The translations under genes were made by a program, and so were the position numbers. The notes beneath the pieces were generated by a model. That model searched no databases. It saw only the letters and a program-made list of their open reading frames with translations, and was not told the origin of the DNA. Positions 13,986 to 44,773 of a stretch of 64,000 bases of DNA are shown here, piece by piece; positions within the stretch are counted from its first letter, which is position 1, and every line of letters begins with the position of its first letter. This stretch comes from Psammoneis japonica (lineage: Eukaryota). The stretch spans positions 1-64,000 of the forward strand of contig QPGO01000063.1 of the NCBI GenBank assembly GCA_008632985.1, read 5' to 3'.

Positions 13986-16555
13986 GAAAAATCCTGAACC
14001 ACATTCTCCCCCAAAACTCCAACCACCAAAAACCGAGGGGTCGGAAGTGCACTTTTGGGAGCTCTGTTTCTCCGCACAAAAAAATGCGTTTTGACAACTC
14101 GACCATGACGACCTCCCGTTCTTTGTCCCCTGCACCTTGCCACTCCTCCGTCCACACATGTGCCGAACCGCCTTCTTCTCCCGTTTCTGCTGACATGCGT
14201 GGCATGCTTCCTTCTAGCAGGATGCCTCAAATTTCGGGCAACCAACATGCTGCTGCTGCACAAGATGTTTGCACGGATGCTGCCGCTTCCAGCCAAATTG
14301 ACGGCACCTTTTCCAACGACGCTGCCGCCGCATCCATCTTGCGGGTCTCTCTTGATGTCTTCCAAAAGGCTCCGCATGCTTGGCAGAGCGACACATCGTG
14401 CCGTGTGCTTCAAACAGACCTGAATTCGGGTGTGCGGATTGCTGCGACACAGCAAAAAACAATGGAGACGTGTTCCAGCCGCACGTGAACCAAGTCGTGC
14501 ACAAAAACGACATTTGCGCGATTTTTGCGTGGTCCCCAACTTGCGATCGAACTTTCACCACCAGAAGTGTGGATTTGTCCAAATGTGAATGTTTTGCAAC
14601 ACTGACAAGACTCGTGTGAGTGTTGCAATGTCGTTGTTGTTGTGCTGTCTGTGTTTTTCATTGCGTTAAAAGATTCGCAACACAACGGATGATTTTTGGC
14701 GAAAACATTGCCGTCACTTGGATGTTGCCCAAATGTGTCTTTCTGCTGTGCTGCTTGGTGGATTTTCTACCTGCAAAGAAATCTCGGCATAAATCCACTG
14801 ACGTACAATCAGCATTGAGTCCACTGAGGAAGTTCATGATGCATGTCCCATGACGACTTGAACACCCCACAAAAAACTGTTCAAATGTTCATGCTCTAGA
14901 CGCCTGTGAAAGCCAATCCGCTCAAGTGTTTTACACAAAAATGCTTCACACACTCAAAGACACACAATTTGTGTTCAAAATCCATTGTTGTTTTGTGCGT
15001 CACCTGGGACTGGAACACGTCTGGAGTGCATGACATGACAGACACACAACTTGTGGCGCTGCCTCACAGTGGACCAGAAGTGACACACAGCACAACATGC
15101 CTGCCAGAGGCAGATTGGACACAAATGACAATGACAATGAAACAGAGTGCTTGAATTCGTGTGTGCGGATTGCTGCAAAATGGCCAAAGAACACACAATG
15201 ACAGAGACACACAACATTGTGCCATCTCACAGTCGACTAGAAAGAACATGCAGTGCAATGTGCAACACCTGCCGGAGATTGGACAGGGCCTGCAAATGAC
15301 AACGACTGCTTGAATTCTGGGTGTGTGGATTGCTGCAACATGCGACCTGGCAGAAAAAGAGCACATTGTGATGCGCACAAACTTGCCTCCTCACAGTCCC
15401 TCACAAGCATCACGCAGTGCCATGAGCCTGCCAGAGAACACTGCACACACAAACTGCAAGTCAAATCATGACAGATCCATTGTCTGTGGCCAACAGCACT
15501 GCAATCATTTTCTTTTCTTCCCCGTGTTTTTCTTTCGTCAACGCGCCTCTTGCACAAGTTTCCACATTTGAAACTTGGCTCGCACCGTGGGCTTGACATT
15601 GTCGCATCGTCAAACCATGATTCAATGAGAATGCCATTGCCCACCTGACAGCCAAAGGCATGCGGCGAGTTGTCCACCAAGACCGTCTTGTCCAAGTCAC
15701 GGCCCAAGACACTCAAGTCCTTGAGGCAATTGCCTTCCACGGCAAGACAGGATTCGCGAAACATGCGGTGTTGAGTGAACACTTGCCATCCAATGGGTGG
15801 GTTGGTGGGTGAGAAGTGCACTTCAATTCAAAAAACACACAACTGCAACATGCACTGCCACTCACCCGGATCAATTCGATTCAACAACTCATCGGCACAA
15901 ACTTGTTGAGATGCCGTAAAGACAATGACTTCATGCTTGCCATGAGTGCTTTGCAAAAACTCCTGCAAGTGCGGCCTCAGACGGATGTGGACTTGGGATT
16001 GAATTCCTCTTCCTCCTCCTCTTCTTCTTCATGCAAACAATTGTCCGTGGCTGCTTCTTCTACATGAAGATCTTCTTCTTCTTGGTCGTCCTCTTCATCT
16101 TGTGTCGTTTCCGTGGCAGCTGGTTTCGGAGCTGCGCCCCAGACCGTTTGAGAGACGGCTCATCAGAACCTTCCACAACACGACAATGCGAATGAGAGCC
16201 CAATTTCTCCGGGGACGCAATCACAGGAGCAGACCAATCCCGGCGCTGTGTTTGTGTTTCAGGCACAGGATCTGGCGAACAGAAGCCCAAATCCTCCGGA
16301 TGGCAAATCGGCTGTGTTTGGGTAACGATGGTGGGTGCAACGGTGCCGGCCAACACAGGAGGGGGCTGCCGCATCAGACATGGCAGGCGGGGATGCGTCA
16401 GGTGGTGTGGGGGACGAAGAACGGGAGGTTGTCATGGTCGAGTTGACGAAACGCGTGATGTTTTGGTGTGTGCGCAGTCTTCCAAAAAGTGCGCTTCCGC
16501 ACCCCTCGGTTTTTGGTGGTTAGAGTTTTAGGGGAGCTGTGGAACAGGAATTTTC
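13986..16555. mobile_element. Putative Pack-MULE-like element with about 150-bp inverted arms
   Basis: 13986-14135 is the reverse complement of about 16403-16555 (AACCACCAAAAACCGAGGGG...CAACTCGACCATGAC.ACCTCCCGTTCTT.GTCCCC). No clear TSD. Confidence 0.55.
15600..16060 (-). pseudogene. Captured fragment of a CTD small phosphatase (SCP/CTDSPL2-like, FCP1/NIF family) gene
   Basis: Reads EEEEEFNP / VHIRLRPHLQEFL...EVIVFTASQQVCADELLNRIDP | GTGAGT intron | [55 protein letters not shown]. The DLDET catalytic segment is missing. Confidence 0.85.
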
Positions 16556-16694
16556 ACTTGTGGAACATGCACATTCATGTGGATGTTAACATTGAAACTC
16601 AACGCACGGCGAAGCCGTGCGCGCACAACCACGAACACACACACAGCTCCCCCACCACAGGGGTGGATCGGCAATGTCAGTCGGCATCAGACTA

Positions 16695-23104: not shown

Positions 23105-23479
23105 CGTTCTGTCTTCACGAAACACAAGATGGTAATTGTTTGCATTTTGGAAAACGAACTCTTCGCCCCGGAATCACTTCTCGGTGACACAAACACGCAA
23201 AGATGATTTACATGTCATCATCATCATACTTCTATGAAGTACAGTACAACACACTCTTGCAGTGAACACAACAAAGCCTCTTTCGCAAAAGCCCCCTACC
23301 GGTATAATATTTGTAGAAGTACAGAAATTGCTTTTTGCCGATTTTGCTTCTCATTTTTCTTTTCGGTATTTTTGCCCCTTTCTCGAGCGTTTCTACCTCT
23401 TTTGCTGTTTTCGCGCATTATTGTGGAAACGCCGTGATTGCGTGCTTCCGCCACCAAAATCCTGCACGCACAAGACTCA

Positions 23480-26400
23480 AATTGCGTTAGACTCGCTGCA
23501 TGCTCGGGGCGGGAGAGAGTGCTTTTGCGTGGACAGCGGATGGCGTGGATGATGGCAATGAATGTCATTCTGCCGGCACCGGCATGTCCCATTTACAGTT
23601 TGGTGCACAGTCTCTCTCTTTCTCTCCTCTTGCTGCTGGCAAGCCTCCAGAGCTCAGCTGCAGCAGCGCAATGGCGGCAAACAAGGAATTGGAGATGACA
23701 GCTGACAATGTTGTTGAGCAGATGGCAAACAAAGTGGAGATCTTGGTTAGTTCAAAAACCTTTGCCAACCACTTTGATGTCAAAAAAAGTGCCTGCACTC
23801 TGACAAGAGATGAGCAGAATGCAAGAAGGGCTGGAATCAGGTGCCCATGACAAATTTGTTCAAACACACAGCGAATGTGTTCCCGACAATGCTCGCACAT
23901 TTCACTGCACCACAGTCAAGAAGCAATTGTGTCATCATCCATCTTTCCACCAGAGCACAGCATCAATCTCACTGCCACAAGTTGATGAAGCAAGTGCGAT
24001 GAAAGTGAAGCAAGCAACACCACAGCCCACCATTGAAAAATGGGAAGATTTCTCGGACCTCTTTGAACAGGAATTTGAAACAACAAGACTCTCAAAACAT
24101 GTTTCCGCACCGCTGTTAGAACCATGGAAAGTGACACAATGTCAACCAACAAAGCTGCAGAGCAAAGCTTCCTCAAGGAGTTTGTGGGCCTGTTTGAACC
24201 TTTTTCCAATGCTGGTCTCGTTTGTCTGCCCTTCCAAGCAGCAGACTGGGGGATCCAATCATTGGGAAGCCAGGTGAAAGCTGTTGTGTGAATTCAGTTG
24301 GGGACAGCCCCACCAGGCAATTGGCAGTTTTTGAAGTGAAAGCCTTGCATGATGTGTTGCTTCCAAACAACTTTGAGGCTTTGAAGAAGGACCACATGAG
24401 GCTGCAGCAGGCATCCCTGCCACAGCCACTGTTGACGCCACTTTCCTGTGTCTGCAGGCTGTCTGTGGTGACGCTGATCCCACAGAAGCGTGCATTGGAA
24501 AACGCAACTCCTGGAGTGCAAGACCTGCAACAGGCTGCAGGAGTTCCACATGACTGAGATCGGCGCGACTGGCCATCGTGCAAGTGACTCACCTTGCATG
24601 AAGGGTCTGCGCAGCATGCACGCAGTGCTGAGTGTGATTGATTCTGTGCAAAGACTCAAGCTCCGCATGTCTTGCTGTCACACATGCACGCACTCCATGG
24701 TGGGTAAAATGGTCTTACAATTTGTGCAAGACATGAATTGTCAACAGTTTGAGCACCTGTGCAGGAATTGGACAAGTGCTCAAACTGTTGACAGTTCATG
24801 TGTTGTGCAAATTGCAAGACTGTTTTACGCACCATGGAGTGTGTGCATGTGTGACAGCAAGATGTGCAGAGCTTGAGTCTTTGCACGGAATCAATCACAC
24901 TTGGCTCTGCACACATCCTGTGCAGACCCTTCATGCAAGGTGAGTCACTTGCACAATGGCCGCCAGTCACGCCGGTCTCAGTTGCATGGAAATTCTGCAG
25001 CCCACCCACCACAGCCACCATTGATGCTGCTGCAAGGTGGCTTTTGAGCACCAAAAGAAGGAAAAGAAAAACAATCAGGCAAAATGTTGGTCCCAAATCT
25101 GTCAACCTCTTGCACAGGAATTGTGCGCATGGCAGACAATGGTGTTTGATGCGGAGCTCTTTTCTGTGCTTCCAAAGCACACTTCAATGACCTTGAAGGA
25201 TGTGCCAGGCAAGTTGGAACAGTCAAAATCACACGTGCATTCTTTGCTGGTGAAAAGGACTTTCTTCAGAAATGTGCATGTGTGACTTGTCTGGTCAACT
25301 CAAATCCAGCCCCAATCAACGAGGTGACCGGCAGGGGTCAAAGCCTTGTTGTCAATTTGGGTGCAATTCCACACAGATGCATCACACAGGTGGAAACCAA
25401 ACACGTGACTTTGTCATTTGACAAAGACTTGCATGTTGGAAACTTCAATCAAGTGCAAATCCAGTCCCAATGCTTGTGTCTGTCCTGGCAATTCTCACAG
25501 CATGGCAGCAACATGCGGGACCTTGCAATGCCAAGCAAATCCCCCCCCCCCCCACTTGTCTGATGCAATGACAACACACCAACAACAATGACATTTGCTG
25601 GCCAGCACACTGGCTGCACCCAACTGGCATTTGTGCTTTGTCTGCACTCACACAAGCAGTCCACCTTGTGCATTGGGTGCAGCCAGTTTGTGATGAAATG
25701 GCACCAAAATGATGTGCAGCAAACAAAGTGCACATGTTGGCATGCAAAAGCCATGGGGAGCACCTCCACCTCTCACTGAACAATGGACAAGCACTTGATC
25801 ATTCCATCTGGGGTGGGTGCATCTCTTAAAAATGTGTGTGTTTCTCTCTGGAGTGTCACCAAATCATGTGTTCTCTGTGATCTTCAGCCAGAGTTGAGTG
25901 TGATGATGCATGCAACATTTGCAAAAGCCAGCCTCCCACCAACATTGTTGCTTGTGTGATTTTTGGGGTGCTTGTTTTGACTCATGATTTGCTTGATCAA
26001 GATGGTCAAGAATCTGAGCACTCTTTCTTTGTTTGGCAGGTGCCAGCATCAGTTGATGAGCCACAGCTCCACCAAAACAAAAACAAGAGCTCGGTCTTGT
26101 GTGACAGCATGATGCTCTCTCCTTTTGTTCAGCAGGATCCAGCGTCAATTAACAAGTGGGGCACTCACACACCAAACAAAATCAAAAGAGTCCTGCGATG
26201 AGCAAAAAACATTTGCAGCAGCAGCATGTCATCAAAAGGGCAACAATTCACAAAAATTATGGTGTCAGGTTGCACCAGCTTGGCTCATTTGCATGAGAGC
26301 CACTTGCCATCAGTGGAGACAACACAACTGCACATGCCATTGTCAATGCCATTGTTCATGCAGTTTTGGGATGCTTGTCTTGATTCAAAGGGGGGCACAG

Positions 26401-27820
26401 GGCATGCCACAGCAACATTGTGGTGCGATGAAAAAACCTGATTGTGCAGCAGAATGGGGACTTCTGTGTGTGAGTGATGAATGTGACCACAACAAAGAAA
26501 ATGAGTGAGATGATGAAACAAAAATGCAAAACAATTCAATCACAGCACAGAGTGAAAGTGAGTGCAGAATTGTTGCGCAGTTGCAAAACCCATTTTTTCA
26601 TCCAACAACTGGCCGGCTGACTTCAAACAAGCAACCTGCATTGATTCTACAAGTGCATGGCAGCAAAAACAAGCAGATGGTTGGAGCCACTCTGGCCAGT
26701 CCCACCTGACTTCATGATTTGGCTGCTTGCTTGCACTTCAGCACCCCTTGTGGTGTGTGCTGTGTGTGTTGTCAATGGCAGAGCAAGCAAAAGTCAAGGA
26801 GCACACAGGTCCAAGCAGATGGCAGATGATTTTGTGTTCAACAGAAAAAAATTCTGCACAATTTCTTGTGCAACCTCCAACCTCCAACTCTCCCCTGATT
26901 TCAGTGTGCTTTGTGCACAAATCAAGCCACATGTCAAAAAAAAAAACACCACACTTTCACCACTGCAACAGGGAGAATGGCAGCTGGATTGCAGAAAAGA
27001 TGGCACACCTGACACCAACAACAGCCATCACCGAGCCAGATGCACCCAAGCTTTCTGCATCCTTGAGTGAGAGCAGCAAAAATGCATTGCTTGGTGCAAA
27101 ATTTTGTTGAAAAGTGCAAACAGCACACACACACAGGCAGGGCGGCTGCTGCAAGCAACACGTTTTTTGAGAGATTCTCTTGGTCTTGTTGAGGATCATG
27201 AGAGCATTGTTTTTGAGGCCAAGCAAAGTGTTTTCCTTCATTGCAAATGCCCTCAACAGAGGAAAATGAATCAAAGTGATGCTGGCGGTCAATCCAGTGT
27301 GAGCACTGGCATGGATGGGGAGACATGTGGCTCTAAATTCTTTGAAGAGGGCAACTTGATCTCCATGGAATCGCCATCTTTTTCAACATCAGAAGGCATG
27401 TTTGGATTGAGAAGATCACATGTTGGGCCCTGCCAAGATTTCTGTTGTGGTTGTGATGATCACAAATCCAACAAAAATCATCGAGATGATGGCAACAATT
27501 TGAAACAGAAGAACTTGCCCCCTCCAGAAAAAAAACAAACTTTGCAGTGCACAGAGGTCCAACAGAAAAGCCAAAGCTGCTCATAACCTTTCAGGACATG
27601 GTGCCCCAGGTGCAACACTCCCAATCAAGACAGTCAGCAGCACACACTGTTTTTGTTGGCCTTTCTTCTTGCACAGCATTGTGCAAGTCGGAGCCAAGAG
27701 CTGATCTCCTCGTACGACACGCCATGTGCAATCGTCTGGCTCGTGTCGTCCGTGCTGTTGATCGGTTTTCAATTTTCAATTTTGCGACTTTTGTCTGGAG
27801 TGGGGCACACTGACTGGATC
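23480..27820. other. TpA- and CpG-depleted repeat block 3
   Basis: TA nearly absent and TG/CA in excess. Contains a foldback palindrome and possible gene remnants. Confidence 0.85.
24541..24994. repeat. About 450-bp foldback palindrome (MITE or foldback-like)
   Basis: 24541-24760 is the reverse complement of about 24771-24994 around a short spacer; ORFs 24490(+) and 24656(-) encode near-identical peptides. Confidence 0.9.
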
Positions 27821-30800
27821 ACCACCGTACCGGTAGACACGGATTGCTTCTCTTGCTCATTATAACAACATGAAATTAGAAATACCGATGGTGCAGGTGG
27901 CAGCAATGGAGAAAATATGGGTTTAACGTTTACGTGTGTACGGCATGGATGTGCCGGTCATGATGGGGTCAGTCAGGCGAGTCGTATCGTCGTGGAAGAT
28001 AGGAAGGATAGCAAAGTACGACGTAACAACATCGACTCTATGCTGTAAACTTGCAAAACATGCTGGCATCACTTCATCGCTGCACGGCAAAAGAATCAAA
28101 ATTCTGACATGGAAGAACTTTGAAAACCGGACCATTGCTCCTTCGCACTAGGGAAAGGAATAACCGAAACACTTCCATCTATTTCCGTTTGGAATGACAA
28201 TGACACTGCGAAAGAAAAGTCCAACGAAGATCTCGGGGAAACAGTGCTTGACCGTTGGTCTACCATTCCAGGGTAGAGAAAAGCTCGTCTCTGAGGAGCG
28301 CCATGGCTTCCCTTTGGTGGGGAAGGTGAAATCGCGACGCTTTCGTCCACAGAAGAGAAGTCGTAGGCTTGTACCGATTCCGCGGTATCCAATGAGCTCG
28401 AAAGCTCCGTGTCAGAAGAATGGGAATCATCCTTCCGCCCGTCATAAGCCAAACGGGAGCTCTCCGAGTGGTCGAGAGGCCCAACCAATGACAAAATGAC
28501 CGGTACCAGCATCAGTCCGTGCGCTACTCCCAGCACAGGAATTGCCAGGAATGTGTAGAAGAAGGTTCTCGCAATCTCCGACTGGGTAAGGAGGAGAGGA
28601 AGGACTCCGATGAATGTCGTGAAGCCTCCCAAGAGGATTGATGTACCCATTGTAGTAAGGCACTTGTATACACGCTCGTTGCGAGTCGTGCCATCCTTGA
28701 TTTCGTAGTAGGTGAGCACGACATGCATGTTGTAGTCAACAACAAGACCAACACTCATAATCAGTCCAATTGTTGAAACGCCATTGATATAAATCCCAGC
28801 GGCGTAAAGCACAGCCAAGATTTCAATGTAGATGGCTGCCACAACGGGAGTCAACAGGAACGCGCCGATTGGATGGGGGATGAAAAGCAAAGAGATTACA
28901 AACACTGCCAAGAGCCCAAGCGCAACGGTGAACAGAAGCTCTTCCACCAAAACAGAATACGTCTCCCACAAGGTAAACAAAGGGCCAAACGCAAAGAATT
29001 TCCAATCGCCCGTTCCCTGATTCACTGGCTGCGACCGTATCACCCTGCGTGCCGCCTCAAGTGAATCAATCTGGTTCTCAACATCATACAAGGATGATTT
29101 ATCAAACCTCACAAAGGTGCGGGATGCGATAATGTCGCCAGACTCATCACGCACGATGTGAGGAGAGTAAAGCGTTTTGGCGGGTTCGATATTCAGAAAA
29201 AGATCAATCCCTTCCTCAAACGTGTAGTTCGCAAAGGCGACCTCCTGTTGCAATCTCTTAATATCACGCAACCAAAACAATTCCGGTGGGTCGGATACGT
29301 ACGGGAGCGCCACCAACTCGTCGACAAAGTCAAGCATCTGCTGCTGAACTTCTTCGGATGATTGGTCCACACCACGAAAGTACACCCCGACGGGATACTG
29401 AGCCATTGTCTCTGGAACAGTGTAGGCGTCGAGGGCGGCAAAGTGTTTTCTCAGATACGAGTCTGCAGGAACGAGTTTTCGAAAGTCAAATTCTTGCTTT
29501 TGGTTCACGGCACCCAGTATTCCAAACACCAACAATGCTGTAAATGCAATGATTATGACAACCTTCGAAATCGGCTTGAGAAGAATTCTGGAATACGCCG
29601 CCATGAGCCTGGTCACGCAGTTAGACTTTTGCTTTGAGTGGCTCTGCTCATGAGGAGGTGGCGTTTTGGACTTGACACACACAAGACAATCGTAGCGACC
29701 CGCCTTCTTCCGTCGATCGTCGTATGCCAAAATTGCAATAAAAAAGGTAATCTGGTAGATGAAATCGATAAGGACGGTTGGCGCGGCGTAGTAACTAAAC
29801 CAGCGAACTCCGGGTAGGCTGGATGTGCATCCCAGAAAAAAGGCCGTCACGGTCGTCAGAGTCGAAGCTGTGATACTGACACCGACTTCTTCCATCACAT
29901 GAACCACTCGATCCGCAAAGGGCTTGGACGAGTCGGATCGCTGAAAGGCACCCGTCAGTATAAAGGTATCGTCCAGCCCGATTCCCACCATGACGTACGG
30001 GAACACTTGCGTGACGCTTGTGAATGGAACGCCAATCAGAAAGAGCAGCCCGTATCCGGTTGCAATGGATACGAGAATGGTCACAACGGCACCCACGCCC
30101 ACGAGACCTTGGCTTTGCACAGGTCTCCTGAAATTGGACAAGTAGAGCGAACAAAAGCACCCCATAATGATAAAGGCAAGCGCAATGTACGGAATGTCCT
30201 TCTTGAGTCCACGCTGAAATTCATCGTCAATGGACCGCTTGGTATTGATGCTGACAAAGCACGCAGACCCATCCTTCTTCCACCCGTCATTGACACCATG
30301 TATTTCATTCACTACATTAAACTCGTACTCGCCCGCATTGGAGAATTCAGCTTCTGGCTCTGCAATACGAATCATGAGCGCTTTTGCACTCGTCATGAGA
30401 AGCTCTTCTTCGGAAGCAGAAGAAGTGTTTTTTGGTAACTCTGGTTGAGATGTACCAAAGACAACGTCTCGAAACACTGGTTCCCCCGTTGGGTATTCCA
30501 ACTCGGACAAGATGCGTCTCAGCGCTACATCCTTCTCATCTTCTAGTGCCAGTCGCTCTTGCATTTCCGTTCGATCATGACGAAAGAATGCGGTTGCCGA
30601 GTGTACCTCGCACTCTCCATTTTGACCCCTAAAACACGCTTTTGCATACCCCGTTGTGTTTTGCATGACTTCCAAGACATCAAAGAGACAATCCATGCCC
30701 CGTCTGTTCAACACATTCTCTCCAGACATGTGCAGAATGGCATCCACAAAACGGGGTGGTGCGGGGAATCCGGCCTCTCCGGAAACGAGCCAGTTCAACT

Positions 30801-31625
30801 GTCTGTCGGAATAGGAATTTGTGGGTGTCCACAGCTCGTTTCGCTCTGTTTCGACAACAAAGTTGGTGGCAAAACCCGCACAAATGAACGTGGCGGCAAT
30901 GATTATCGAGATACATATAGTCACACCGGGAGAACGTGCTGCGGCACTTGCGATCCAAACAAGGCCTTTGACAAGTGGTCTTTTCACATAGCGTTCGGTA
31001 TACATGTCCCACTTTGCGAGACACTTATTGTTGTTTTTGTTGCTACTTATTGGAGCAGCAGCCGAGCGGCGGTGTGTCGAATCATTGTCATCGGAGGAAG
31101 TACCCCATGTTTCTGCGTCATCTTCCCACGATGAACTACGTCCCATGTCGTTTGATGATAATGATGAAACTTCCATCTTTTGTGAGTTGGGTCGTTTGTT
31201 GTTTACAAAATGCTTTATTCAAGTCGCGTTCTCTCTCGTTGTTAGTTTCGTGGGAAGTGGCAGCATGTTTTCACAGTTTTTTGTGTTTTGGGAACAACTA
31301 AATGAGAGTGAGAAAGTATCACAAGATTGGCAACGGATTTCAGTCTTGTTGTGGAGCCTTCCGATAGGTATAGAAATTCTATGCCATGATTACAACGCAT
31401 ACCCTTACAATTTCATACGTCACATATAGTTCATATGAGCGGACTAATGTTGTTATTAATATTCCGCCAAAATAAGACTGATAGAAAAATCTTTTTTTAA
31501 TTAGAATTAATGAATATACCAATAAAAATTTCTTGTAACGTAAATTCAGTTCATTCAAATTCAAAATTTCATCATCCTGCCCTAAACCTCACGGCGCCTT
31601 ATATTCTTTATTCAGATATTATACC
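26509..31625. repeat. Segmental duplication copy A (repeat flank, Patched/NPC1-like gene and promoter)
   Basis: Colinear with about 39485-43895 in direct orientation. Copy A has an extra about 670 bp (about 27025-27690). Confidence 0.9.
28096..31176 (-). CDS. Patched/Niemann-Pick C1-like sterol-sensing-domain RND membrane protein, copy A
   Basis: Intact 1026-aa ORF. SSD with GIGLDDTFIL and GVSITASTLT, second repeat GLVVDYNMH...HGLMLVPVILS. Confidence 0.9.
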   Translation of the reverse strand: MEVSSLSSNDMGRSSSWEDDAETWGTSSDDNDSTHRRSAAAPISSNKNNNKCLAKWDMYTERYVKRPLVKGLVWIASAAARSPGVTICISIIIAATFICAGFATNFVVETERNELWTPTNSYSDRQLNWLVSGEAGFPAPPRFVDAILHMSGENVLNRRGMDCLFDVLEVMQNTTGYAKACFRGQNGECEVHSATAFFRHDRTEMQERLALEDEKDVALRRILSELEYPTGEPVFRDVVFGTSQPELPKNTSSASEEELLMTSAKALMIRIAEPEAEFSNAGEYEFNVVNEIHGVNDGWKKDGSACFVSINTKRSIDDEFQRGLKKDIPYIALAFIIMGCFCSLYLSNFRRPVQSQGLVGVGAVVTILVSIATGYGLLFLIGVPFTSVTQVFPYVMVGIGLDDTFILTGAFQRSDSSKPFADRVVHVMEEVGVSITASTLTTVTAFFLGCTSSLPGVRWFSYYAAPTVLIDFIYQITFFIAILAYDDRRKKAGRYDCLVCVKSKTPPPHEQSHSKQKSNCVTRLMAAYSRILLKPISKVVIIIAFTALLVFGILGAVNQKQEFDFRKLVPADSYLRKHFAALDAYTVPETMAQYPVGVYFRGVDQSSEEVQQQMLDFVDELVALPYVSDPPELFWLRDIKRLQQEVAFANYTFEEGIDLFLNIEPAKTLYSPHIVRDESGDIIASRTFVRFDKSSLYDVENQIDSLEAARRVIRSQPVNQGTGDWKFFAFGPLFTLWETYSVLVEELLFTVALGLLAVFVISLLFIPHPIGAFLLTPVVAAIYIEILAVLYAAGIYINGVSTIGLIMSVGLVVDYNMHVVLTYYEIKDGTTRNERVYKCLTTMGTSILLGGFTTFIGVLPLLLTQSEIARTFFYTFLAIPVLGVAHGLMLVPVILSLVGPLDHSESSRLAYDGRKDDSHSSDTELSSSLDTAESVQAYDFSSVDESVAISPSPPKGSHGAPQRRAFLYPGMVDQRSSTVSPRSSLDFSFAVSLSFQTEIDGSVSVIPFPSAKEQWSGFQSSSMSEF

Positions 31626-32255
31626 AATTTACGAAAACGCTAGAGAACGCTTTTGTGACTGAAAATTCCAACGGAAGTTGTACATCTCAACATTCGGCTT
31701 TGAGAATGAGAAATACACAGCCGGCAAAAAAATGGAAGCAGTCTCACGCCCCGTGTGCAGAAAGCCACGCACAAGACGCGTGTCACGCTCATTTTCATTT
31801 TTCTGCTTTTATTTTCTGTGTTAGACCGACTCAGAGGGACAGTACACCCAATTCCTGAGGGACACGACACGCATACAAGTGCCATACACAGACACATAAT
31901 CAATCGCACACAACACGCACAATTTCCAAGGGACACGAAACCCTCACAAAGTTTTACCAAGTCAATTTGATTTGCACGCAGCAAACTGCAGCAGCACAAT
32001 GATGCGAGCCGCCGGTGTCCCACTTTACGGCGTGATATCTCAATGATACTTTCACCAATTTTCCCGTTGCTTATTTCATTCTTAACATAAATTGTACAAT
32101 ACATCCAATGACTTTGATTCCATTGTGTGTCATTGTGAATTGTGGATTTCTGTTTTGTTTGAAACCATGCAGCAATTTCAAATTTGGAGAAGCGCGCACT
32201 CTAGGGAAAGCGTGTACGAAGGATGCAGGTTGTGCAGCATTTCGATTCCCAATGG

Positions 32256-32497
32256 TCGATCCGAAACTATTGGTAGTGTCACACCATCGTATGTCGTGTG
32301 ACATGTGATAGAGCATGTGATGCAGCAGTTAAAATTAAGACTCCTACAATGAATGCCAGTGGTGCAAACAGCAAGCTAATCTGCCGTCGATCCGAAACTA
32401 CCAGTGGTGTCGCATGATAGAGCATGTTAGGTTGTTAAATTTGAGACTCTTACAATAAACACTAGTGATGCAAATAGCATGCTAATCTGCTGTCAAT
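32256..32497 (+). repeat. Imperfect tandem duplication, about 110-130-bp units
   Basis: GTCGATCCGAAACTA...GATAGAGCATGT...GCTAATCTGC occurs twice. Confidence 0.75.
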
Positions 32498-32510
32498 GTG
32501 ACTGGAGTTT

Positions 32511-33520
32511 TTAAGCCGCCGCCCTCTTGCCCTCTTTCTCAATCTTGTTCATCATCGTTTGCAGTTTTTTCCAATGCCGAAACAACAGCTCCCACTTTGT
32601 TTTCCAATTTGGATTTTCCATCAATAACCTTCCTCTCCTCACTTGTGCTAGCTTTGAAGCTGCGAGTTGATGCTGCCTTCTTTTCATCAACCAGCTTGTT
32701 GTACAAGGGCACGGCTTTGTTGTGCTGCTCAACCAAATTAAAATGTACTTGAGAGACACGGATTTCAATATCTTGCAAGCCCTGTCCCACCAAGCCATGT
32801 AGTTGTCATCATCCTTTGCTTGAGGACGATTGCTGCCATTGAGATACTCCTTCTCCTCACTTGTAAACAGCGTACGCAGGCCCTTGCTTTTAGAGATTTG
32901 TTGAGTTCGTCATGCTCGGATTTTTTGTAAAGTGCTCCATGCCCCAACTTCTTCTTGAGCACCATGTACACACCAGAATCATATTGTGCCTGCGACTTAG
33001 GCTTCCAATGAGTCCCCTTGCGAGCACCTTCGCGTTCAATCTTGTGCTCCATTGAGAAAGTGCAGAATTGCCTCATCAATTTGCTGCAGTTCGGCACAGT
33101 GAGAGTCTCTCCACGTAGATGCTTTCATTCCAACTGATGGACTGGTGGATGTCCTGTTTTTTTGGCAAAAACGTTAAATGCTGCGACCGCCGTCTTGTAG
33201 CCATCTTCGGTTCGGTCTGCTTTGTCTTGCATTTCTGCGCATGCTTGGAGCATCATGGATTCGTCTTCGCGCTCTTCTGCCTCATCCTCATTTGAATCTT
33301 CCAAAAAGGAGGCCTCAAGCTCAGTAGCAAGTCGATTGATGTGGTCCACCTCACTCGCTTTTGCCTCGTCGCTCGGCTCGTCGCTGGACTTGTCCTTCTT
33401 GTATGGATTGCTATGATGCGAGTAGAAGATTGTGCCTGCTGCAGTGGTTGCTGGTGGTTCCAACCCGTCCTGGGCCTGTGCAGTTGGAGCATCTTTTTCA
33501 TTGATGAGAGATGGCATTAT
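32511..33520 (-). pseudogene. Disrupted gene, possibly the N-terminal part of a Crypton-like tyrosine recombinase
   Basis: MPSLINEK...YKTAVAAFNVFAK..., TGA at 33125-33127, then KLMRQFCTFSM...SQAQYDSGVYMVLKKK. No catalytic R-H-R-Y residues are visible. Confidence 0.3.
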
Positions 33521-33819
33521 GGACAAATGATGCCAAACAGCGTATGCCATACAAGTCCAATCGCAACGAATCGCAACAATGGCAATGAAAACGGTAGACT
33601 GGGCAACGAGCGAGCGGCGGTAGTGCGGTGGTCGGACCGTCTGTCGTCCGTCGTAGGGTGACCGGTCTGGTCGCCGGCTCCACCCGTCGATTTCCGGCCG
33701 ATTTGCGAGGGACCCGAGGGACACCCTGTCCCTCGGTGGCGCGCTTCGCGCGTCCCTCCCGCTCCGCGGGACAAATGTCCCTCCAGGGACGCTCCGCGTC
33801 CCTCCAAAAAAAAATTTCT

Positions 33820-36800
33820 GGGGATTTTGCCAGCGGCCCATCCGCCCAAAATCAATCGTTGTCAGACAGTGCCCCGTGCTGTGGCTTCTGGCACTTTTCC
33901 AAGCAACGATGAGAGCACAAATTCGAAAATCACAAATGGTGAAAATGGTGCTCGTCTCTGCGAAGCTCATTTCGAAGACAATCGGGTCCACACCATGGAC
34001 AATCTCCATCCTGTGACTGATGCACATTTGCAATGATGTCATGGCAACAAAACTGATTGTGTTGAGTTGTGTTTGTGCAGCCACGACATGGTGCAGAATC
34101 GCGCTTTGGTGTTTTGGGGGGTGTTGCCTGCCCCCTTGTCTTGCACTCCAAGTCATTCATTTCACATCACAATGTCCTGGAGAGCAAGGTGTTGACACTC
34201 TGTCATTTGCAGTGCCGAGGCTTTGCAAGTGAAGTGGATTGAGTTGTCAACAATTGTGGGTGTGTCCTCAGCAACCACGCAGCAAAGCAGCAGCAGGAAG
34301 TTAGAGCAGCATGTCGATGGTGCATGGCTTGACTTGCTTGGACTCAACAAAACCACCTGGAGTGGCTTTCGTGTGACAAAATTGTGGTCTGTTGTCGTGC
34401 ATTTGAATCATTTGTGTGCGTGTGCTTGCAGTTGAACATGGTCAATCTTGCATCTCATTCTTTTTGTGGTCAGGCATGCTGGAGTGCCAGAACTGTGGGG
34501 AGACAATTGTTTGCAACAGCTCTGTGCATGGAGCTCAACAAAATGAATGATTGTGGTCTGTTGCGGCACATTTGAGTCATTTGTTTGTGCATCCTTGCAG
34601 TTGAGTGTGACCAATCTTGCATCTCATCCTTGTTGTTTGGTGCGCACTGGATGCCAGAACTGCGCCATGTCAATTGGGCATGACAGCCTGACTTGGATCT
34701 CAACAAACTGAGTTGGAATGACTTTTGTGTGATCTGTTTCTGTCCATGTGGTCTGGTGTAATTTGCTCCATGCCCATCATGAAAGCATGATCCACCAGAA
34801 GAACTTCTGTGTGATGATTTTGCACTGTTGCTCCACTTGGAACTCAACAACTGTTGGGATGGCTCTCATGGGTCAACTTGGCATTTTTTTCATGCTTGCT
34901 GGAGGAGCATGTTGGTTTTGTCTGGCCGCACTGATGTTTTTCTGGTCAAACTGGAGCTGTGATTTGAGATCAAAGCAAGTGGACAGGTCACCACACCATT
35001 GTTCAGTTGTCTTTGCATGCAATGACTTCAACATGCTGGCTGCAAAACCCTGCTGAGCTGTCACAACAATCATTGAAAGCACAGCTGTGGCTGGCGCTGC
35101 TGATTGAGTGGTGAATTCATGTCGAAAATTGGCACAAAGGGTCGCATTGCACCCCCACTTTGTGTGTGCTGCAGTGAGTGATGGTGCGTGGGGCAGGTGA
35201 AAAATCCCCAGAAAATTAAAAAAATGAGCTGTGATTTGAGATCAAAGCAAGTGGGTGGGTCACCACGCCATTGTTCAGTCATCTTTGCATGCAATGACTT
35301 CAAGGTTGCAAAACCCTGCTGAGCTGTCACAACAATCATTAAAGCACAGCTGTGGCATTGATTGAGTGGTGAGTTTGTGTTGAAATTTGGACATGAAGGG
35401 TTGCATCGTGCCCTCACTTTGTGCATGCAGTGCATGACGGTGCAAAGGGCTGGTGGTGAAAAATCCCCAGACAACAAACTCTGGAACTCCCACTGCTCAA
35501 GTGTGGGTGGGCCCAGCAAGCAATTCTAAAAACCATCAATGGTCATTGCCGCACAACCCAGCAGCATTTTGGTCCTCTGCATGTGAGGAATTTATGCAAA
35601 AATTGTGCATGCAGAAAAGTTGCGTGAAACCATGACAATGAAAGCAGGAGCAAACAAGTGTGGTGCAGCAGCATGACAAAAATGTCAGGAGGAAGATGAA
35701 CACAGACAGAGCAAACAATGAGGTGAGCACCACATGAGTGTCAATCGACAATGTCAAGCAAACTGCAGACAAGGTGGACACATGCCCATCAAGAGTCTTC
35801 TTGCTGGAGGAGTCAGAAAAGCACTGACATTGACACGCTGCACAGTGGCAGCAACAAGACCAAAAGTCATTGGAAGCAAGTGAGGCATGGGAAGACAAAA
35901 AGACAGACAGAGCAAACAATGAAGTGATTTCCACATGAATGTTGATTGACAACATCAAGCAAACTGTGCACAAGACAGACACGCGCCTGTCAAGAGACTT
36001 CTTGCAGGAGGATTCGGAGTGAAGGTGGGCATGGCAGCTGCTGCATTGGTGGGCATGACTGCTGCTGCATTGGTGGTGCTTGATGCACCTGCAGCTGCTG
36101 CGGTGGTTGGTGTAGTTGCTGCACAGGGTGAGGCTGTGGCAGATGCACTTTCTGTGGTGGACAAAGCTGAGGTGGCAGAATGGGGACAATGGAGTCAAGA
36201 GTGGCAACGGTGCAGACCCATGGACATCAATGTCACTGTCTGCAAGTCCCACACAGCAGGATGTGGGGCAAGGAGGTTCAAGGTGAGTGCCGCTGCAAAT
36301 GAGAACAGGAAAAATGAGACACAATTCCACGAGAATCACTCCAACCAATTCCAGAGCCGGGGCTTGCTCACATGGCACGACCCAATGGAGCACAACACCA
36401 GCAAGCAAGGTGGGGGTTGAGAGGCAGTGTGATTCCAGCCAAACAGTCAAAAAGCACCATTGTCAGAGTGAGCGACAGTTGTTGATCAGCCGCTCAGAAA
36501 AATTGTGAGCCATCAACTCACACTGCACACCATTTGAAGTTGCAAAAATTCTGCTGGCACAAAATCCACACATGCATGCATCAGCATAAAAAACTTTGGG
36601 AAGTCCACAAGTGGAGCTGTGCAGCCATCTTGCAGCCTGTGAAGATTCTGTCATTGAAATGTGCCAGCATGTGCTTTTCTGTGCAAAATGATTTGAATCA
36701 GTCCCACTGAGTTTTTCAAATTTTGATTGCAACAATGGCCCCAGGCAGCGAGATGAACACAGACACACAATTGAATTCAACATCACACTTGGCACTCTTG

Positions 36801-39800
36801 TCATTGAATGTTGCGCAACTCTGCCATTTGCCATCAAAATCTGACACCTTTGCTTGAGCAAACATGAGTGCAAAAGTGCTCTTTTTGCAGCACTTTGGTG
36901 CTTCAGTCTTGCACATGACTGCACTCCCCAAGTGGTTGTGGTCAAACTGCATGCACAAAATCCTCACAACAGGAGACCCTGTGTGCACTCCCTGTGCACT
37001 CAACGTGCCTCTGCACAACAAAAGAAATGACCCGCAGCTTGTGTGTGGCCTTCTTGTTGAGCCAGCCAGTTGGTCTCCATCTCATTGCTTGGACCCTTCT
37101 CATCTCCTCATTGGGCTCCACAAGTGCACAGTGCACAGGGCGTGCACCTGCAATGCAGATCTGTGTGCAAAATGTCAAAATGTGCATCACATTGTTTTAG
37201 AAAAAAGTTTTTTGTCATGCACCAAATTGCAACAAGTGAGACAGCAACTTGCCATCTGTGATGTTGTTGCCAATGACAGGCACCATTGCATTTGCAACTG
37301 TCATCCAGACTTGTGGGATCCTTCGTTTGGGAAATGTGGCACAGCATTTGCAAAGAAAAGTGTGAATTTGCATCCATATTCATTGGCTTGAAATTGGAGG
37401 TGTGTCAACAAATCGGCTGTCACCATCATTGACAAGCACTGCCTCACTCATTGTGTGCATTGGATCTGTGTTCTTTGTTTGCACAGAAAGTTGATGCATG
37501 TGCCCAAAATGCCTCCAAAGAAACAAAGCAAATGCACCAGTCATCCAAGTGAAGCAAAGAGATTTTGCAATGAAAACAAGAAGCAGCACAAGATGCTTCC
37601 AAGAAGCACAAGGCTTGGTCCACTTCTGATTGGATGAGCAAAACAGTCAGTGTCATGCCCATTCACATGGAAGAAGCAAAGTGCCAGAAGAACAAAAAGC
37701 AAGCACAAATCAACAGTCAAGTTTGCTCTTGATTCAAAACTGCCCTGCATGGCTTCAATGGTGCTGTGTGCTGCTGATGTGCCACATGTTTTCCATGTTG
37801 CAGTCACATCTGGCTGACGCTCCAGGCAGTGTGCACTTGATTGCCATTTTTCAAGATTTTCCAACACTCGCAAAAATCTTTGAAAGTGTCTTTGCCAAGT
37901 TCTTCAGGCCCAATCAACAACAATGTGACTGGATGACACAATCTTCAAGAGAATTTTTGCAAAGACTTTTCAGCTGATTGCTGTTGGTGGCAGGTTGTGT
38001 CCACCTGTGGCAATCAAGCAACAACAATCGGGACCACATCTCAACAATTGCAACATGTCCTTTGTGCAAACAATGGATCATTCACAACCACCCAAATCAA
38101 GAGTGTCATTTTTGCAATGTGCAACCACAGTGCATGGGTGGCAACATGAAAACAAACCAGATGTGGTGTGGATTGTCATTGTCACATGATTTGCAAGTGG
38201 AGCAAAAACTTTTGGAGCTCCCAAGCAGCCACAGAGCAATGGCCCACACTCCACAGAGAAACAAGGCCTTGCCACCATTCACCAATCTGAGGCTCTCCAT
38301 GATGTTTTGCTTTTCCAAGAAACTTTGTTGCCCCAGTGCCAAACCCAAGGCTTGTTCAGCCCCATTGCCATCAAGAGAGCATCTCAACACTGGTCATCTT
38401 GAATGACCAATTGTTTGAAGCAATTTGATCCAACCAACAAACAAGATCCTTTTGTGAGTGCTGATGAAGAAGCCAAGGGGAACAGTGACGTGCATGTTGG
38501 GTTTGAACAAACCTTGCTTTTGCATTTTTCTGTTGCTTTCTACATTCAGACTGAGCAGTTTCCCTCTCTGACTCCATCTCTCACACAGAGGAGAGGTGCA
38601 CAAGAAGGTGGACAATGCAGTTTTTCATCCAAATTGGATGGTTGCTCTTGGTGCATGATGTGGTTTCCAGTGCTTGTGGGACATCAGTTTTTTGGTGACA
38701 TCTCCATGCCGTCATCCTTGTGGCCCTCCTCTTGGCCAAAGATGGCTTCAATGACAATCCAAGTGCCTGCCATTCAGTCTGTGATCAGACAGAAGCCTGA
38801 CGTGTTTTGGTGGCAACATCCAGTCACAGTGCTGGGACAAGGTTGAAAATGATGCTGTGATGAAATGTGAAATGTTGTCATTTCAGCTGCACACAAGTGC
38901 CACACATCATCACAGCTTGAGAGCACAATTGGTCAACCCCAAAAGCACTTTTGCAATGTCGTGACAGCCATGACTCTCAATGAGCTTCTGAAGCTCTCAC
39001 AAAGACAAAAGGTTCTTCAAAAGGTTCTTGGGGTGTCTTGACACAAAAGAGAACATAATTTCAGAGAGTGGAACTTTGGTCACGATGAGAGGGCAGTCTC
39101 ACCGAGACATCAGATTGATTCTTCTTGTCATTTCTTGAGTCATGCCAGACCTCACAGCATTTTTGAGACATGGCCTCTCTTCCCGGACAGAGAAAACATC
39201 AATGACAATCCAGGAATGTTGTTTCTGATCATTGGAGAGAAGCCTGAGATGTTTCAGTGGCACAAAATCCAGTCACAGTGCAGGGACCAGGTAAAAACTG
39301 ATGACACAGTGAAATTTGGACAGCTGTTGTCATCATTTTCTTAGTCCAACACAAGTGCCACACATCACAATCACTTTAGAGTGTCGCTGGCCAACCCCAA
39401 AAGCAAACAAGATGCTTCAGAGCAAAGTGAAATGACAACAGGCTTCGGGTGACCCACGAGTTGCCGGGGATGGAACACTGGCTGGATGATGAAACAAAAG
39501 CATGTGGCTTGATGTGATCATGGCAGAGAGTGAAAGTGAGCACAGAATTGTCCTGCAGTTGCACGGCTCATTTTTGTGTCTTGACAACTGGCCGACTGCC
39601 TTCAAACAAGCAATTTGCACTGATTCTGCATGATGGCAAAGACCAGCAGATGGCTGGAGCCACTCCAATGAGTCAGACCCAACTTCATCTGGCTGCTTGC
39701 TTTAGCATCCCTTGTGGTGTGTGTGTGCATCGTCAATGGCAGAGCAGGCAAAAGGTTGGGAGCACAGAAGCCCAAGCAGATGCAGAAAATTTTGTGCTGT

Positions 39801-40110
39801 GCAGAATTTCTGCACAATTTCTTGTGCAGCAACCTCCAACCTCCACCCCCCCCAGATTTCAAGGTGCTTTTCACAAATCAAGCCACATTTAAAAAAATGC
39901 ACTTTCACCACCACAAGAGGGACAATGGCTGCTGGATTGCAAAAGAGGTGTCACAACTCACACACTGGCAACAGCCAAGAGCTGTTGTCCTCGTGCAACA
40001 CGCCACGTGCCATCGTCTGGCTCGTGTCGTCCGTGCTGTCAGTTGATCGGTTTTCAATTTTCAATTTTGCGACTTTCGTCCGGAGTGGGGCACACTGACT
40101 GGATCACCAC
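33820..40110. other. TpA- and CpG-depleted repeat block 4 with internal direct repeats
   Basis: About 17 TA in about 6 kb by manual count. Repeat pairs at about 34380/34550, 34955/35226, 35703/35903 and 38790/39238. Confidence 0.85.
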
Positions 40111-43100
40111 CGTCCGTGCCGGTAATCATGGATTGCTTCTCTTGCTCATCATGAAATTAGAAATACCGACGCAAATGGTGCAGGCGGCAACAATGGAGGA
40201 AATATGGGTTTAACGTTTACGCGTGTACGGTATGGATGAGAAGGTCATGATGCGGTCAGTCAGGCGAGTCGTATCGACGTAACAACATCGACTCTATGGT
40301 TTTAACTTGCAAAAGGTGCTGGCATCACTTCATCGCTGCACGGCAAAAGAATCAAAATTCTGACATGGCAGAACTTTGAAAACCGGACTATTGCTCCTTC
40401 GAAGTAGGGAAAGGAATAACCGAAACACTTCCGTCTCTTTCTGTTTGGAATGACAATGACACTGAGGAAGAAAAGTCCAATGAAGATCTCGGGGAAACAG
40501 TGCTTGACCGTTGGTCCACCATTCCAGGGTAAAGAAAAGCTCGTCTCTGAGGAGCGCCATTGTTTCCCTTTGGTGGGGAAGGTGAAATCGCGACGCTTTC
40601 GTCCACAGAAGAGAAGTCGTAGGCTTGTACCGATTCCGCGGTATCCAATGACGAGCTCGAAATCTCCGTGTCACAAGAATGGGAATCATCCTTCCGCCCG
40701 TCATAAGCCAAACGGGAGCTCTCCGATTGGCCGAGAGGCCCAACCAATGACAAAATGACCGGTACCAGCATCAGTCCGTGCGCTACTCCCAGCACAGGAA
40801 TTGCCAGGAATGTGTAGAAGAAGGTTCTCGCAATTTCCGACTTGGTGAGAAGAAGAGGAAGGACTCCGATGAATGTCGTGAAGCCTCCCAAGAGGATCGA
40901 TGTGCCCATTGTAGTAAGGCACTTGTATACACGATCGTTGCGAGTCGTGGCATCCTTGATTTCGTAGTACGTGAGCACGACATGCATGTTGTAGTCAACA
41001 ACAAGACCAACACTCATGATGAGTCCAATCGATGTAATGCCGTTGAGATATACACCAGCTGCGTAAAGAACCGCCAAGATTTCAACATAGATGGCCGCCA
41101 CAACGGGCGTCAACAGCAACGCGCCGATTGGATGAGGGATGAAAAGCAAAGAGATTACAAACACTGCCAAGAGCCCAAGCGCAACGGTGAATAGAAGCTC
41201 TTCCACTAAAACAGAATACGTCTCCCACAAAGTAAACAAAGGGCCAAAAGCAAAGAATTTCCAATCACCCGTCCCCTCATTCACCGGCTGCGATCGTATC
41301 ACCTTGCGTGCCGCCTCAAGCGAATCAATCTGGTTCTCAACATCATACAAGGATGATTTATCAAACCTTACAAAGGTGCGTGATGCGATAATGTCGCCAG
41401 ACTCATCACGCACGATGTGAGGAGAGTAAAGCGTTTTGGCGGGTTCGATATTCAGAAAAAGATCAATCCCTTCCTCAAACGTGTAGTTCGCAAAGGCGAC
41501 CTCCTGTTGCAATCTCTTAATATCACGCAACCAAAACAATTCCGGTGGGTCGGATATGTACGGGAGCGCCACCAACTCGTCCACAAAGTCAAGCATCTGC
41601 TGCTGAACTTCTTCGGATGATTGGTCCACACCACGAAAGTACACCCCGACGGGATACTGAGCCATAGTCTCTGGAACAGTGTAGGCGTCGAGAGCGGCAA
41701 AGTGTTTTCTCAGATATGAGTCTGCAGGAACGAGTTTTCGAAAGTCAAATTCTTGCTTTTGGTTCAAGGCACCCAGTATTCCAAACACCAACAATGCTGT
41801 AAATGCAATAATCACGACAACCTTTGAAATCGGCTTGAGAAGAATTCTGGAATACGCCGCCATGAGCCTGGTGACGCAGTTTGCCTTTTGCTTTGGGTCG
41901 CTCTGCTCTTGAGGAGGCGGCGTTTTGGCCTTGACACACACAAGACAATCGTAGCGACCGGCTTTCTTCCGTCGATCGTCGTATGCTAAAATGGCAATAA
42001 AAAAGGTAATCTGGTAGATGAAATCGATAAGGACGGTTGGCGCGGCGTAGTAACTAAACCAGCGAACTCCAGCAAAGCTCGATGTGCATCCCAGAAAAAA
42101 GGCCGTCACGGTCGTCAGAGTCGAAGCTGTAATACTGACACCGACTTCTTCCATGACTTGAACCACTCGATCCGCAAAGGGTTTGGACGAGTCGGATCGC
42201 TGAAAGGCACCCGTCAGTATAAAGGTATCGTCCAGTCCGATTCCCACCATGACATATGGGAACACTTGCGTGACGCTTGTAAATGGAACGCCAATAAGAA
42301 ACAGTAGACCGTATCCGGTTGCAATGGATACGAGAATGGTAACCACGGCGCCCACACCCACGAGACCTTGGCTTTGTACGGGTCTTCTGAAATTGGACAA
42401 GTAGAGCGAACAAAAGCACGCCATGATTATAAAGGCAAGCGCAATGTACGGAATGTCCTTCTTGAGTCCACGCTGAAATTCATCGTCAATGGATCGCCTG
42501 GTATTGACGCTGACAAAGCACGCAGACCCATGCTTCTTCCAACCGTCATTGACACGATGTATCTCATTCACAACATTAAACTCGTACTCGCCGGCATTGG
42601 ATAATTCTGCTTCTGGCTCAGTAATACGAATCATGAGCGCCTTGGCACTCGTCATGAGAAGTTCTTGTTCGGAAGCAGAAGAAGTGTTTTTTGGTAACTC
42701 CGGTTGAGATGTACCAAAGACAACGTCTCGAAACACTGGTTCCCCCGTTGGATATTCCAACTCGGACAAGATGCGTCTCAGCGCCAAGTTTTCATCGGAT
42801 CTTGTGCCAGTCGCTCTTGCATTTCCGTTCGATCATGACGAAAGAATGCGGTTGCCGAGTGTACCTCACACTCTCCATTTGGACCCCTCGAACACGCTTT
42901 TGCGTACCCCGTTGTGTTTTGCATGACTTCCAAGACATCAAAGAGACAATCCATGCCGTTTCTGGTCAACACATTATCTCCCGTCATGTGCAAAATCGCA
43001 TCGACAAAACGGGGTAGTGTGGGGAAGCCGGAATCACCGGAAATGAGCCAATTCCAATGCTTCTCGGAATAGGAATTGGTGGGTGTCCACAGCTCGGTAC

Positions 43101-43895
43101 GCTCGGTTTTGACGACAAAGTTGGTGGCAAAACCAGCGCATATGCAAGTGGCAGCAATCATGATGGAGATAAATATAGTCACGCCGGGAGAACGTGCCGC
43201 GGCGCCTGAGATCCATAAAGGCATTTGACAAGTGGCCTTTTCAAATAGCGTTCGGTATACATGTCCCACTTTGCGAGACACTTGTTTTGGCTGCTACTTA
43301 TTGGAGCAGCAGCCGAGCGTCGATGTGTCGAATCATTGTCATAAGAGGAATTATCCCACGTTTCTGCGTCATCTTCCCACGATGAACTACGTCCTATGTC
43401 ATCATCTAATGATGATGATGAAACCTCCATCTTTTGTTTGTGTATAATGATGAAATCTCACGGGTCGTTTGTTGTGTTTAAAATGCATTCATATTCAAGT
43501 CGCGTTCTCGTAGTTGGTTTCGTGGGTGGAGCATGCTGTTCACAGATTTGTTTCGTCTGAACGAGTGAGAAAGTATCACAAGATTGGCAACGGATTTCGG
43601 TCACCGGATGAGTCTTGTATACGGCATATTTAGATCTATAGATTTTAGAAATAGATTGAAATGCTTCTACACAGAATTTCGTACGTCACATTTATGTTCT
43701 TATGCAAAGACATATGCTATTATCGGAACACCCGCCAAAATACGACTGATAGAAAAATCTTATTGACAATACAAGAGCGTATAGAATACAAAAAATTTCC
43801 TGCAACGTCAAACCGGTTCATTCAAATTAAATATTTCGTCACATTGCCCTTCAACCTCAAGGGGCCTCACCCTTTTTTAAAATTATAATATAACT
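39485..43895. repeat. Segmental duplication copy B
   Basis: Colinear with 26509-31625. Confidence 0.9.
40388..43430 (-). CDS. Patched/NPC1-like protein, copy B, with two 1-bp frameshifts (about 43220 and 42790; error or pseudogene)
   Basis: ORFs 43430, 43281 and 42787 align piecewise with copy A at high identity. Confidence 0.8.
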
Positions 43896-44742: not shown

Positions 44743-44773
44743 CCTCCAAAGCACGCATTAAGAGTTTTCATCC

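Follow-up and report, generated by a model that had tools for sequence, protein, structure and literature searches.

Repeat-induced point mutation (RIP) acts premeiotically and depends on RID, and the fungi that have it largely cannot keep duplicated genes. It changes CpA to TpA in linked duplications longer than about 400 bp with more than 80% identity (PMC3318451). TpA-specific hypermutation has been described in Bigelowiella natans, where it affects integrated nucleocytoplasmic large DNA virus (NCLDV) and virophage DNA (Mettrop et al., bioRxiv 10.64898/2026.01.13.699255); according to the available part of that preprint, the region chiefly targeted is silent and present in one copy, the rate is about 1000-fold above background, activity occurs in some lines only, and an A-deaminase is proposed, not demonstrated. 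In Phaeodactylum tricornutum, CG methylation by DNMT5 falls on transposons, and genes are mostly unmethylated (PMC9998398). Here we analyse 64,000 nucleotides of Psammoneis japonica (assembly GCA_008632985.1, contig QPGO01000063.1, positions 1 to 64,000)—hereafter the window—in which a Patched/NPC1-like gene was duplicated together with about 0.5 kb of 3' flanking DNA that is nearly free of the dinucleotide TA (TpA).

The mutation process at this locus appears to follow position and not homology: one duplication would have carried the gene and the border of the mutated DNA along together, a reading to which we give a probability of roughly 0.7. The direction of change, its TpA specificity, its activity after the duplication, the sparing of coding and non-coding DNA, and the same border in both copies are all read from sequence. 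The locus offers an internal negative control, since its linked duplication is old and of a kind that RIP would attack, and a positive control in the same window; additionally, the border is located to about 100 bp in both paralogues, which names exact sites to assay. Together, the two controls and the mapped border favour position or chromatin over homology.

TpA Loss in the Window and in Known Systems

The window opens contig C65 in a genome of 91.4 Mb and 597 contigs. A two-state segmentation finds five TA-poor segments, totalling 22.8 kb of the 64 kb, that alternate with five normal ones; TA occurs 0.3-0.8 times per 100 bp in the former and 3.6-4.6 times in the latter. Observed/expected ratios in the TA-poor segments are 0.08 for TA, 0.44 for CG, 1.72 for CA, and 1.77 for TG (GC content 49%), compared with 0.55 for TA and 1.01 for CG in normal segments. 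Part of the flank has a homologue, on contigs C175 and C191, in which TA and CG are normal, and this fixes the direction of change: over 1061 bases aligned with C175, at 69% identity, the window reads TG or CA at 36 of 54 homologue TAs and at 33 of 46 CGs, and TA is not among the common outcomes listed.

Like RIP of Neurospora, as far as that source describes it (PMC3318451), the process at this locus consists of dinucleotide-specific transitions on both strands, mostly in repeat DNA, and is probably a genome defence. Unlike RIP, it destroys TA instead of creating it (TA observed/expected 0.08; TG or CA at the polarised TAs above), and it spares a linked 3.9-kb duplication whose copies are 89-93% identical and 12.3 kb apart. 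RIP, which the earlier note took as its yardstick, was rejected as an explanation: the direction is wrong, and the close homologue named for the gene comes from a diatom, whereas RIP is fungal.

On this sequence evidence the match is B. natans-type TpA hypermutation, here apparently bounded by position. By the preprint's account, the two share change from TpA to TpG or CpA only, confinement to regions, no need for homology, and TpA-poor, CpA/TpG-rich clusters tied to transposon domains. They differ in lineage—B. natans is a rhizarian, and the present case falls in the stramenopile diatom lineage, a different supergroup—and in completeness, since erasure is near complete here (0.08 over 22.8 kb) compared with 0.45 reported for the B. 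natans NCLDV region. Here, moreover, erasure alternates with genes at the kilobase scale, is accompanied by slower CG loss, and has sharp borders. The targets in B. natans are silent and of foreign origin; those at the present locus count repeats and the fragment of a dead host gene among them. Sparing of duplicated host genes is not among the tests in the available part of that account, which is the single published case of TpA hypermutation and leaves targeting open. Methylation by DNMT5 followed by decay of 5-methylcytosine would fit change of CG to TG or CA in transposon-rich, repressively marked DNA such as P. tricornutum is described to have (33 of 46 polarised CGs here; 41 of 207 CG positions variable among copies of a 2-kb repeat discussed below), but offers no route to TA loss. 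A literature search, covering titles and the starts of abstracts, returned no report of TpA loss in diatoms.

An Old Duplication with Spared Genes

The duplicated unit comprises 26509-27027 and 27693-31600 (copy A) against 39485-43868 (copy B), 12.3 kb apart. In self-comparison, 27692-31599 and 39973-43867 are 88.6% identical over 3.9 kb, and 26509-27015 and 39485-39963 are 75% identical. The gene in copy A, at 28096..31176 on the minus strand, is a 1026-amino-acid open reading frame (ORF) for a sterol-sensing membrane protein (Pfam Sterol-sensing, Patched, and MMPL) with normal TA and CG. Its counterpart in copy B (40388..43430, minus strand) has a stop codon 12 codons earlier, and its frame is interrupted in the assembly by single-base gaps near 42800 and 43217. 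Contigs of the public run X1, which may be the source sample, carry an extra base behind 42798, at the first of these gaps; this suggests that the gaps are assembly errors.

The duplication is old. The earlier note had called the gene copies near-identical; their coding sequences (CDSs) are in fact 93.4% identical, with a synonymous divergence (dS) of 0.186 and a non-synonymous divergence (dN) of 0.036 over 1017 codons (dN/dS 0.19), and identical runs reach at most 175 bp. Changes since the duplication number 27 non-synonymous and 44 synonymous in A and 26 and 41 in B; the similarity of these tallies implies that B was under selection through most of its history. A third paralogue lies on contig C23 (protein 82% identical over the 600 amino acids searched, DNA 75%), and among 33 homologues listed is one from the diatom Seminavis robusta at 43% identity.

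Both genes have kept what the flank has lost, as the earlier note had stated: the CDSs hold 98 and 107 TAs and 189 and 196 CGs, and tyrosine makes up 36 of the 1026 residues in copy A, compared with 35 in the 1020-residue frame of the third paralogue. Duplicated non-coding DNA is spared as well. Downstream of the stop codon there are 17 TAs in 268 bp in A (27828..28095) and 12 in 265 bp in B (40123..40387); upstream there are 31 in 424 bp in A (31177..31600) and 30 in 438 bp in B (43431..43868), the two upstream pieces being 78% identical. The analysis supports the earlier proposal that homology alone is not the trigger.

Where a TA can mutate synonymously, it is kept in the other copy at 39 of 52 sites in A and 38 of 58 in B. 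Polarised by the C23 paralogue, synonymous changes amount to 7 losses and 8 gains of TA, and 12 losses and 13 gains of CG. This balance means that protein-level selection does not explain the sparing, and the alternative that selection simply removed hits in the genes is unlikely in that plain form, as synonymous and non-coding TAs are retained. The earlier note had stated that synonymous CDS changes equally enriched for TA to TG or CA would count against its inference; with TA flux balanced and TA kept in the non-coding parts, the changes found do not overturn it. A subtler version holds that a homology-triggered process did hit the genes and that damaged alleles were then purged. Both copies are under purifying selection, clustered mutations would drag synonymous changes out with harmful ones, and synonymous TAs show a mild excess of change; however, synonymous and non-coding TAs are at equilibrium, the mutations seen elsewhere are scattered singles (in the C191/C175 pair below), and at the speed implied by the positive control neutral TAs would have gone many times over. 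We regard purging as very unlikely.

Mutation of the Flank After the Duplication

Flank A (26509..27027) holds 1 TA and 2 CGs in 519 bp, and flank B (39485..39977) 2 TAs and 3 CGs in 493 bp; the two are 81% identical and differ by 14 TG/CA doublets. Flank A is a composite of the segment with the unmutated homologue on C175 and C191 and a short dispersed repeat. A 665-bp segment at 27028..27692, with a 5-bp direct repeat at its ends, occurs in copy A only and is erased too (2 TAs, 7 CGs); it has one short match elsewhere in the genome, and may be an insertion in A or a deletion in B.

In the 485 aligned bases of the flank, TG<->CA accounts for 14 of 21 double transitions (p=1e-8 against one class in eight). 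Reciprocal doublets occupy 14 of 97 TG/CA sites in the flank and 1 of 382 in the CDS (p=1e-9), the latter being the one such doublet in 3071 coding bases. Without continued erasure, 0.6 doublets would be expected in the flank and some 15 TA or CG sites would have newly arisen, compared with 14 and 3 seen; the excess of doublets and the shortage of new sites imply that erasure of TA and CG went on after the duplication, which upholds the earlier note's central claim. Transversions (30/485 in the flank, 37/484 at four-fold sites, p=0.38) and non-doublet transitions (34/457 and 38/484, p=0.90) run at matching levels, so flank and gene are equally old and the excess consists entirely of the doublets. 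Separate insertion of one repeat beside each gene was ruled out: the composite stands in the same order in A and B, and such insertion also conflicts with a flank whose transversion age equals that of the gene.

All five letter differences quoted in the earlier note were found in place. Two of its three examples of TA versus TG, cgTAcgac 27711 / cgTGcaac 39992 and cgTAcc 27826 / cgTGcc 40115, each reading TA in A and TG in B, fall outside the erased flank, within an edge zone of 120-130 bp by the gene, and the third, ttcTAca 26645 / ttcTGca 39624, adjoins a 6-bp indel where the alignment is uncertain. The reciprocal examples, gagTGcag 26560 / gagCAcag 39538 (where the homologue reads TA) and ccTGac 26705 / ccCAac 39678, belong to a class that is real and above chance, but one that derives from CG as well as from TA. 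The notion that all 14 doublets are ancestral TAs resolved twice was rejected, as ordinary transitions at about 100 TG/CA sites that recreate TA or CG, followed by renewed erasure, could yield a similar number; between the window and C175, 17 of 167 TG/CA sites have switched from one form to the other. The doublets show activity after the duplication, not the state at duplication.

That state can be approached through 170 bp common to A, B, and the homologue. Of 14 homologue TAs, 10 have the same outcome in A and B, 2 are reciprocal, and 2 have changed in another way; of 6 CGs, 2 have the same outcome, 3 are reciprocal, and 1 falls in neither class. Independent erasure predicts that half should be reciprocal (for TA, 10 versus 2, p=0.04), and the excess of agreeing outcomes suggests that the flank was probably mostly TA-erased, and still CG-bearing, when it was copied. 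What followed was probably loss of CG and of a minority of TAs, together with re-erasure of newly arisen TA and CG. To say that the flanks mutated independently, as the earlier note did, is right for some later loss and too strong overall—10 of 12 resolved TA sites have the same outcome.

A and B as Separate Loci

Copies A and B could, as the earlier note itself cautioned, be mis-assembled haplotypes of one locus. No X1 contig bridges A to B, a high-copy repeat sits between the copies, and the assembly is in 597 pieces. X1 nevertheless has separate contigs, each with its own neighbour, for flank A (25500-27689), for flank B into its gene-side edge (37500-40071), and for the upstream end of B with the next gene (43569-45400), which differ from the window by 25, 18, and 0 letters. 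A dS of 0.19 between the copies also contrasts with differences of 0/1832 to about 1% between the window and X1. The depths of these contigs, 49.6, 61.8, and 56.8, against 93.9 for the contig on which the CDS copies collapse, point the same way, as weak evidence that gives no copy number and comes from what may be the source sample. A further run, X2, reached 16 of 30 bins and was set aside. We hold the haplotype account to be highly improbable.

Across the erased stretches 25500-27689 and 37500-40071, 43 of 4762 letters differ between the window and X1, some by transversion; in genic 43569-45400, 0 of 1832 do. In 25500-27689 the window has 6 TAs and 13 CGs, and X1 reads TG or CA at 3 of these TAs and 3 of these CGs; among the 23 of 25 differences listed there are also 2 new CGs in X1 and 3 TG<->CA doublets. 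The differences at flank TAs suggest that erasure is still active, X1 being perhaps another allele or strain.

Borders of Erasure

The segmentation places flank A in a TA-erased domain at 23420..27827 (14 TAs in 4408 bp, CG-poor core 23581-27688) and flank B in one at 33655..40122 (17 TAs in 6468 bp, CG-poor core 33984-39991). Each domain ends toward the gene in an edge zone that retains CG and is depleted of TA. In edge zone A (27693..27827), CG is retained from 27689/27711, and 27711-27827 has 1 TA and 10 CGs; in edge zone B (39978..40122), CG is retained from 39992, and 39992-40122 has 0 TAs and 14 CGs. In the two copies, CG is retained from one and the same homologous base (27711 = 39992), about 390 bp beyond the stop codon, despite adjoining DNA that differs by the 665-bp segment. 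TA depletion extends 131-139 bp further toward the gene than the CG border in the two copies, and among the 7 edges that the two losses share across the window, 6 have TA loss outrunning CG loss by 131-329 bp, and one shows the reverse, by 95 bp. These positions suggest that the gene fixes the border in cis and that the border moves little.

The offset between the two losses bears on the chemistry. TA loss might arise as a side effect when deaminated methyl-CG is repaired by error-prone synthesis (polymerase-eta-like, A-to-G after A or T), a proposal that disputes the chemistry and not the positional targeting. TA and CG are indeed lost in the same domains, and TA loss reaches one to two nucleosome lengths past CG loss at the 6 edges just mentioned, much as repair patches could. 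Polymerase eta, however, mutates AA too, and AA is barely raised among copies of the 2-kb repeat (12/316, compared with 5/261 for GA and 73/115 for TA); furthermore, CG is near normal in block 12484-19990, where TA has been lost. We consider the repair explanation quite unlikely.

Other Duplicates and Repeats

A dead segment with a NIF-phosphatase fragment (15022..16265, minus strand) serves as positive control; its second copy lies on C67, and both are erased. Over 1227 bp the pair shows 107 transitions and 6 transversions, with 33 TG/CA doublets and 18 other transitions; 3 and 5 TAs are left, and 31 of 37 CGs are common to both. It is about 15-fold younger than the NPC1 pair by transversions and 4-5-fold younger by other transitions, and since so young a pair is already stripped of TA, there was time enough for the NPC1 genes to be erased. 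We infer some 66 TAs when the two copies split; a hand estimate from the same pair would put the TA rate in erased DNA at 200-600 times background at least.

A second duplicate, C191/C175, is spared over 4.6 kb (L023:2753-7337 and L024:2967-7543), with 212 and 218 TAs; the pair is known from the assembly alone. With two indel-adjacent differences left out of the count, its 4.3-kb core has 10 substitutions, of which 7 are TA<->TG/CA; six are losses in C191, four of them near its edge. This gene island has a near-identical core with different neighbours on both sides, and losses of TA and CG begin at the C191 edge.

Between A and B lies a young dispersed repeat of 2.0 kb (31811..33818), among whose copies TA erasure is in progress. 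The repeat (L030-L038) has 13 near-full-length copies at 92-98% and has a short ATTTTC-like direct repeat at its borders; its longest ORF has no Pfam match. Among 10 copies, transition-variable positions number 73/115 for TA, 41/207 for CG, 12/316 for AA, and 5/261 for GA. For eight of the 10, one neighbour is TA-normal and the other TA-poor. In X1, two contigs show a join over the repeat (31799/31812 to 33815, with 24-26 letters on the short side); X1 may lack this insertion, or the joins could come from other loci.

Repeats could themselves guide the process, with a threshold—for instance through small RNAs from high-copy or transcribed repeats—such that genes in two or three copies fall below it and need no protection. 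Repeats and transposon-like DNA abound in erased domains, 13 matches place part of the flank in a dispersed family, the 2-kb repeat is mutated unevenly along its length in all copies, and RNA guidance is raised in the B. natans preprint (bioRxiv 10.64898/2026.01.13.699255). Three observations run counter to this: the low-copy 665-bp segment is equally erased (its one short outside match does not prove rarity), a flank segment erased here is normal on C175 and C191, and, of the roughly 34 TAs that sister copies retain in the left third, repeat copy L036 has lost 30. Guidance by repeats is, in our judgement, unlikely.

Several observations weigh against targeting by position. The left third of the 2-kb repeat keeps TA in 9 of 10 copies, including 2 of the 3 with an erased left neighbour, while the middle is being erased, so features intrinsic to the element matter too. 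In the CDSs, synonymous TA sites change faster than other A/T sites (7/30 versus 14/168, p=0.02) and synonymous CG sites faster than controls (12/90 versus 4/122, p=0.008); a weak leak of about 3-fold into the CDS is possible, although the flux is balanced, and the polarisation relies on an outgroup 75% identical that leaves 41 differences unpolarised. The split of flank erasure into before and after the duplication comes from 170 bp and a homologue 69% identical, and in that comparison TA and CG sites together against TG/CA sites give p=0.18. The missing X1 bridge between A and B belongs here as well.

Proposed Mechanism and Its Significance

Under targeting by position, a segmental duplication would have copied the gene, about 0.5 kb of a neighbouring mutation-prone domain, and the border between them. 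Within such domains a fast TpA-specific process would turn A into G on either strand, so that TA becomes TG or CA; a second, slower process would turn CG into TG or CA, both acting by position and not by pairing of copies. In both copies the protected part would begin about 270 bp beyond the stop codon and take in the gene as well as the region upstream of it, and its border is most likely the end of the gene's transcribed, open chromatin. CG loss may be 5-methylcytosine decay in silenced chromatin, and TA loss is most likely adenine deamination by a TadA/ADAT-like enzyme with access to that chromatin only.

A more specific form of this mechanism invokes a chromatin-gated DNA adenine editor. 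Such an editor would be permanently in place and active to this day, rewrite every TpA in silenced DNA hundreds-fold over background, ignore homology, and reach one to two nucleosomes beyond a methylated core, with a border set in cis by each gene and carried along on duplication. We propose this form tentatively, at somewhat less than even odds. The enzyme is a guess: a deaminase domain search of the genome gave 5 matches, none tied to the process, and to our knowledge such domains are present in nearly all genomes. A search for C5 DNA-methylase domains likewise gave 27 matches (L044-L051), none tied to the process; several contain stops, they cluster on C297, C10, and C301, and they outnumber the few DNMTs described for P. 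tricornutum.

If targeting by position is correct, the lineage can mutate mobile DNA heavily and yet keep duplicated genes; were the adenine-editor form also correct, this would be a mutational defence without RIP's cost to gene duplication. Transition-based dating of repeats in this genome would be misleading.

Two further features of the window concern its repeat content. Block 12484-19990 contains transposase-like ORFs poor in tyrosine (17616-19985) and an inverted repeat pair (13986-14136 / 16404-16555) in addition to the NIF-phosphatase fragment. A 190-bp part of the 2-kb repeat (31972-32200) recurs on C7, C90, C100, and C32 in head-to-tail arrays whose period is about 189 bp.

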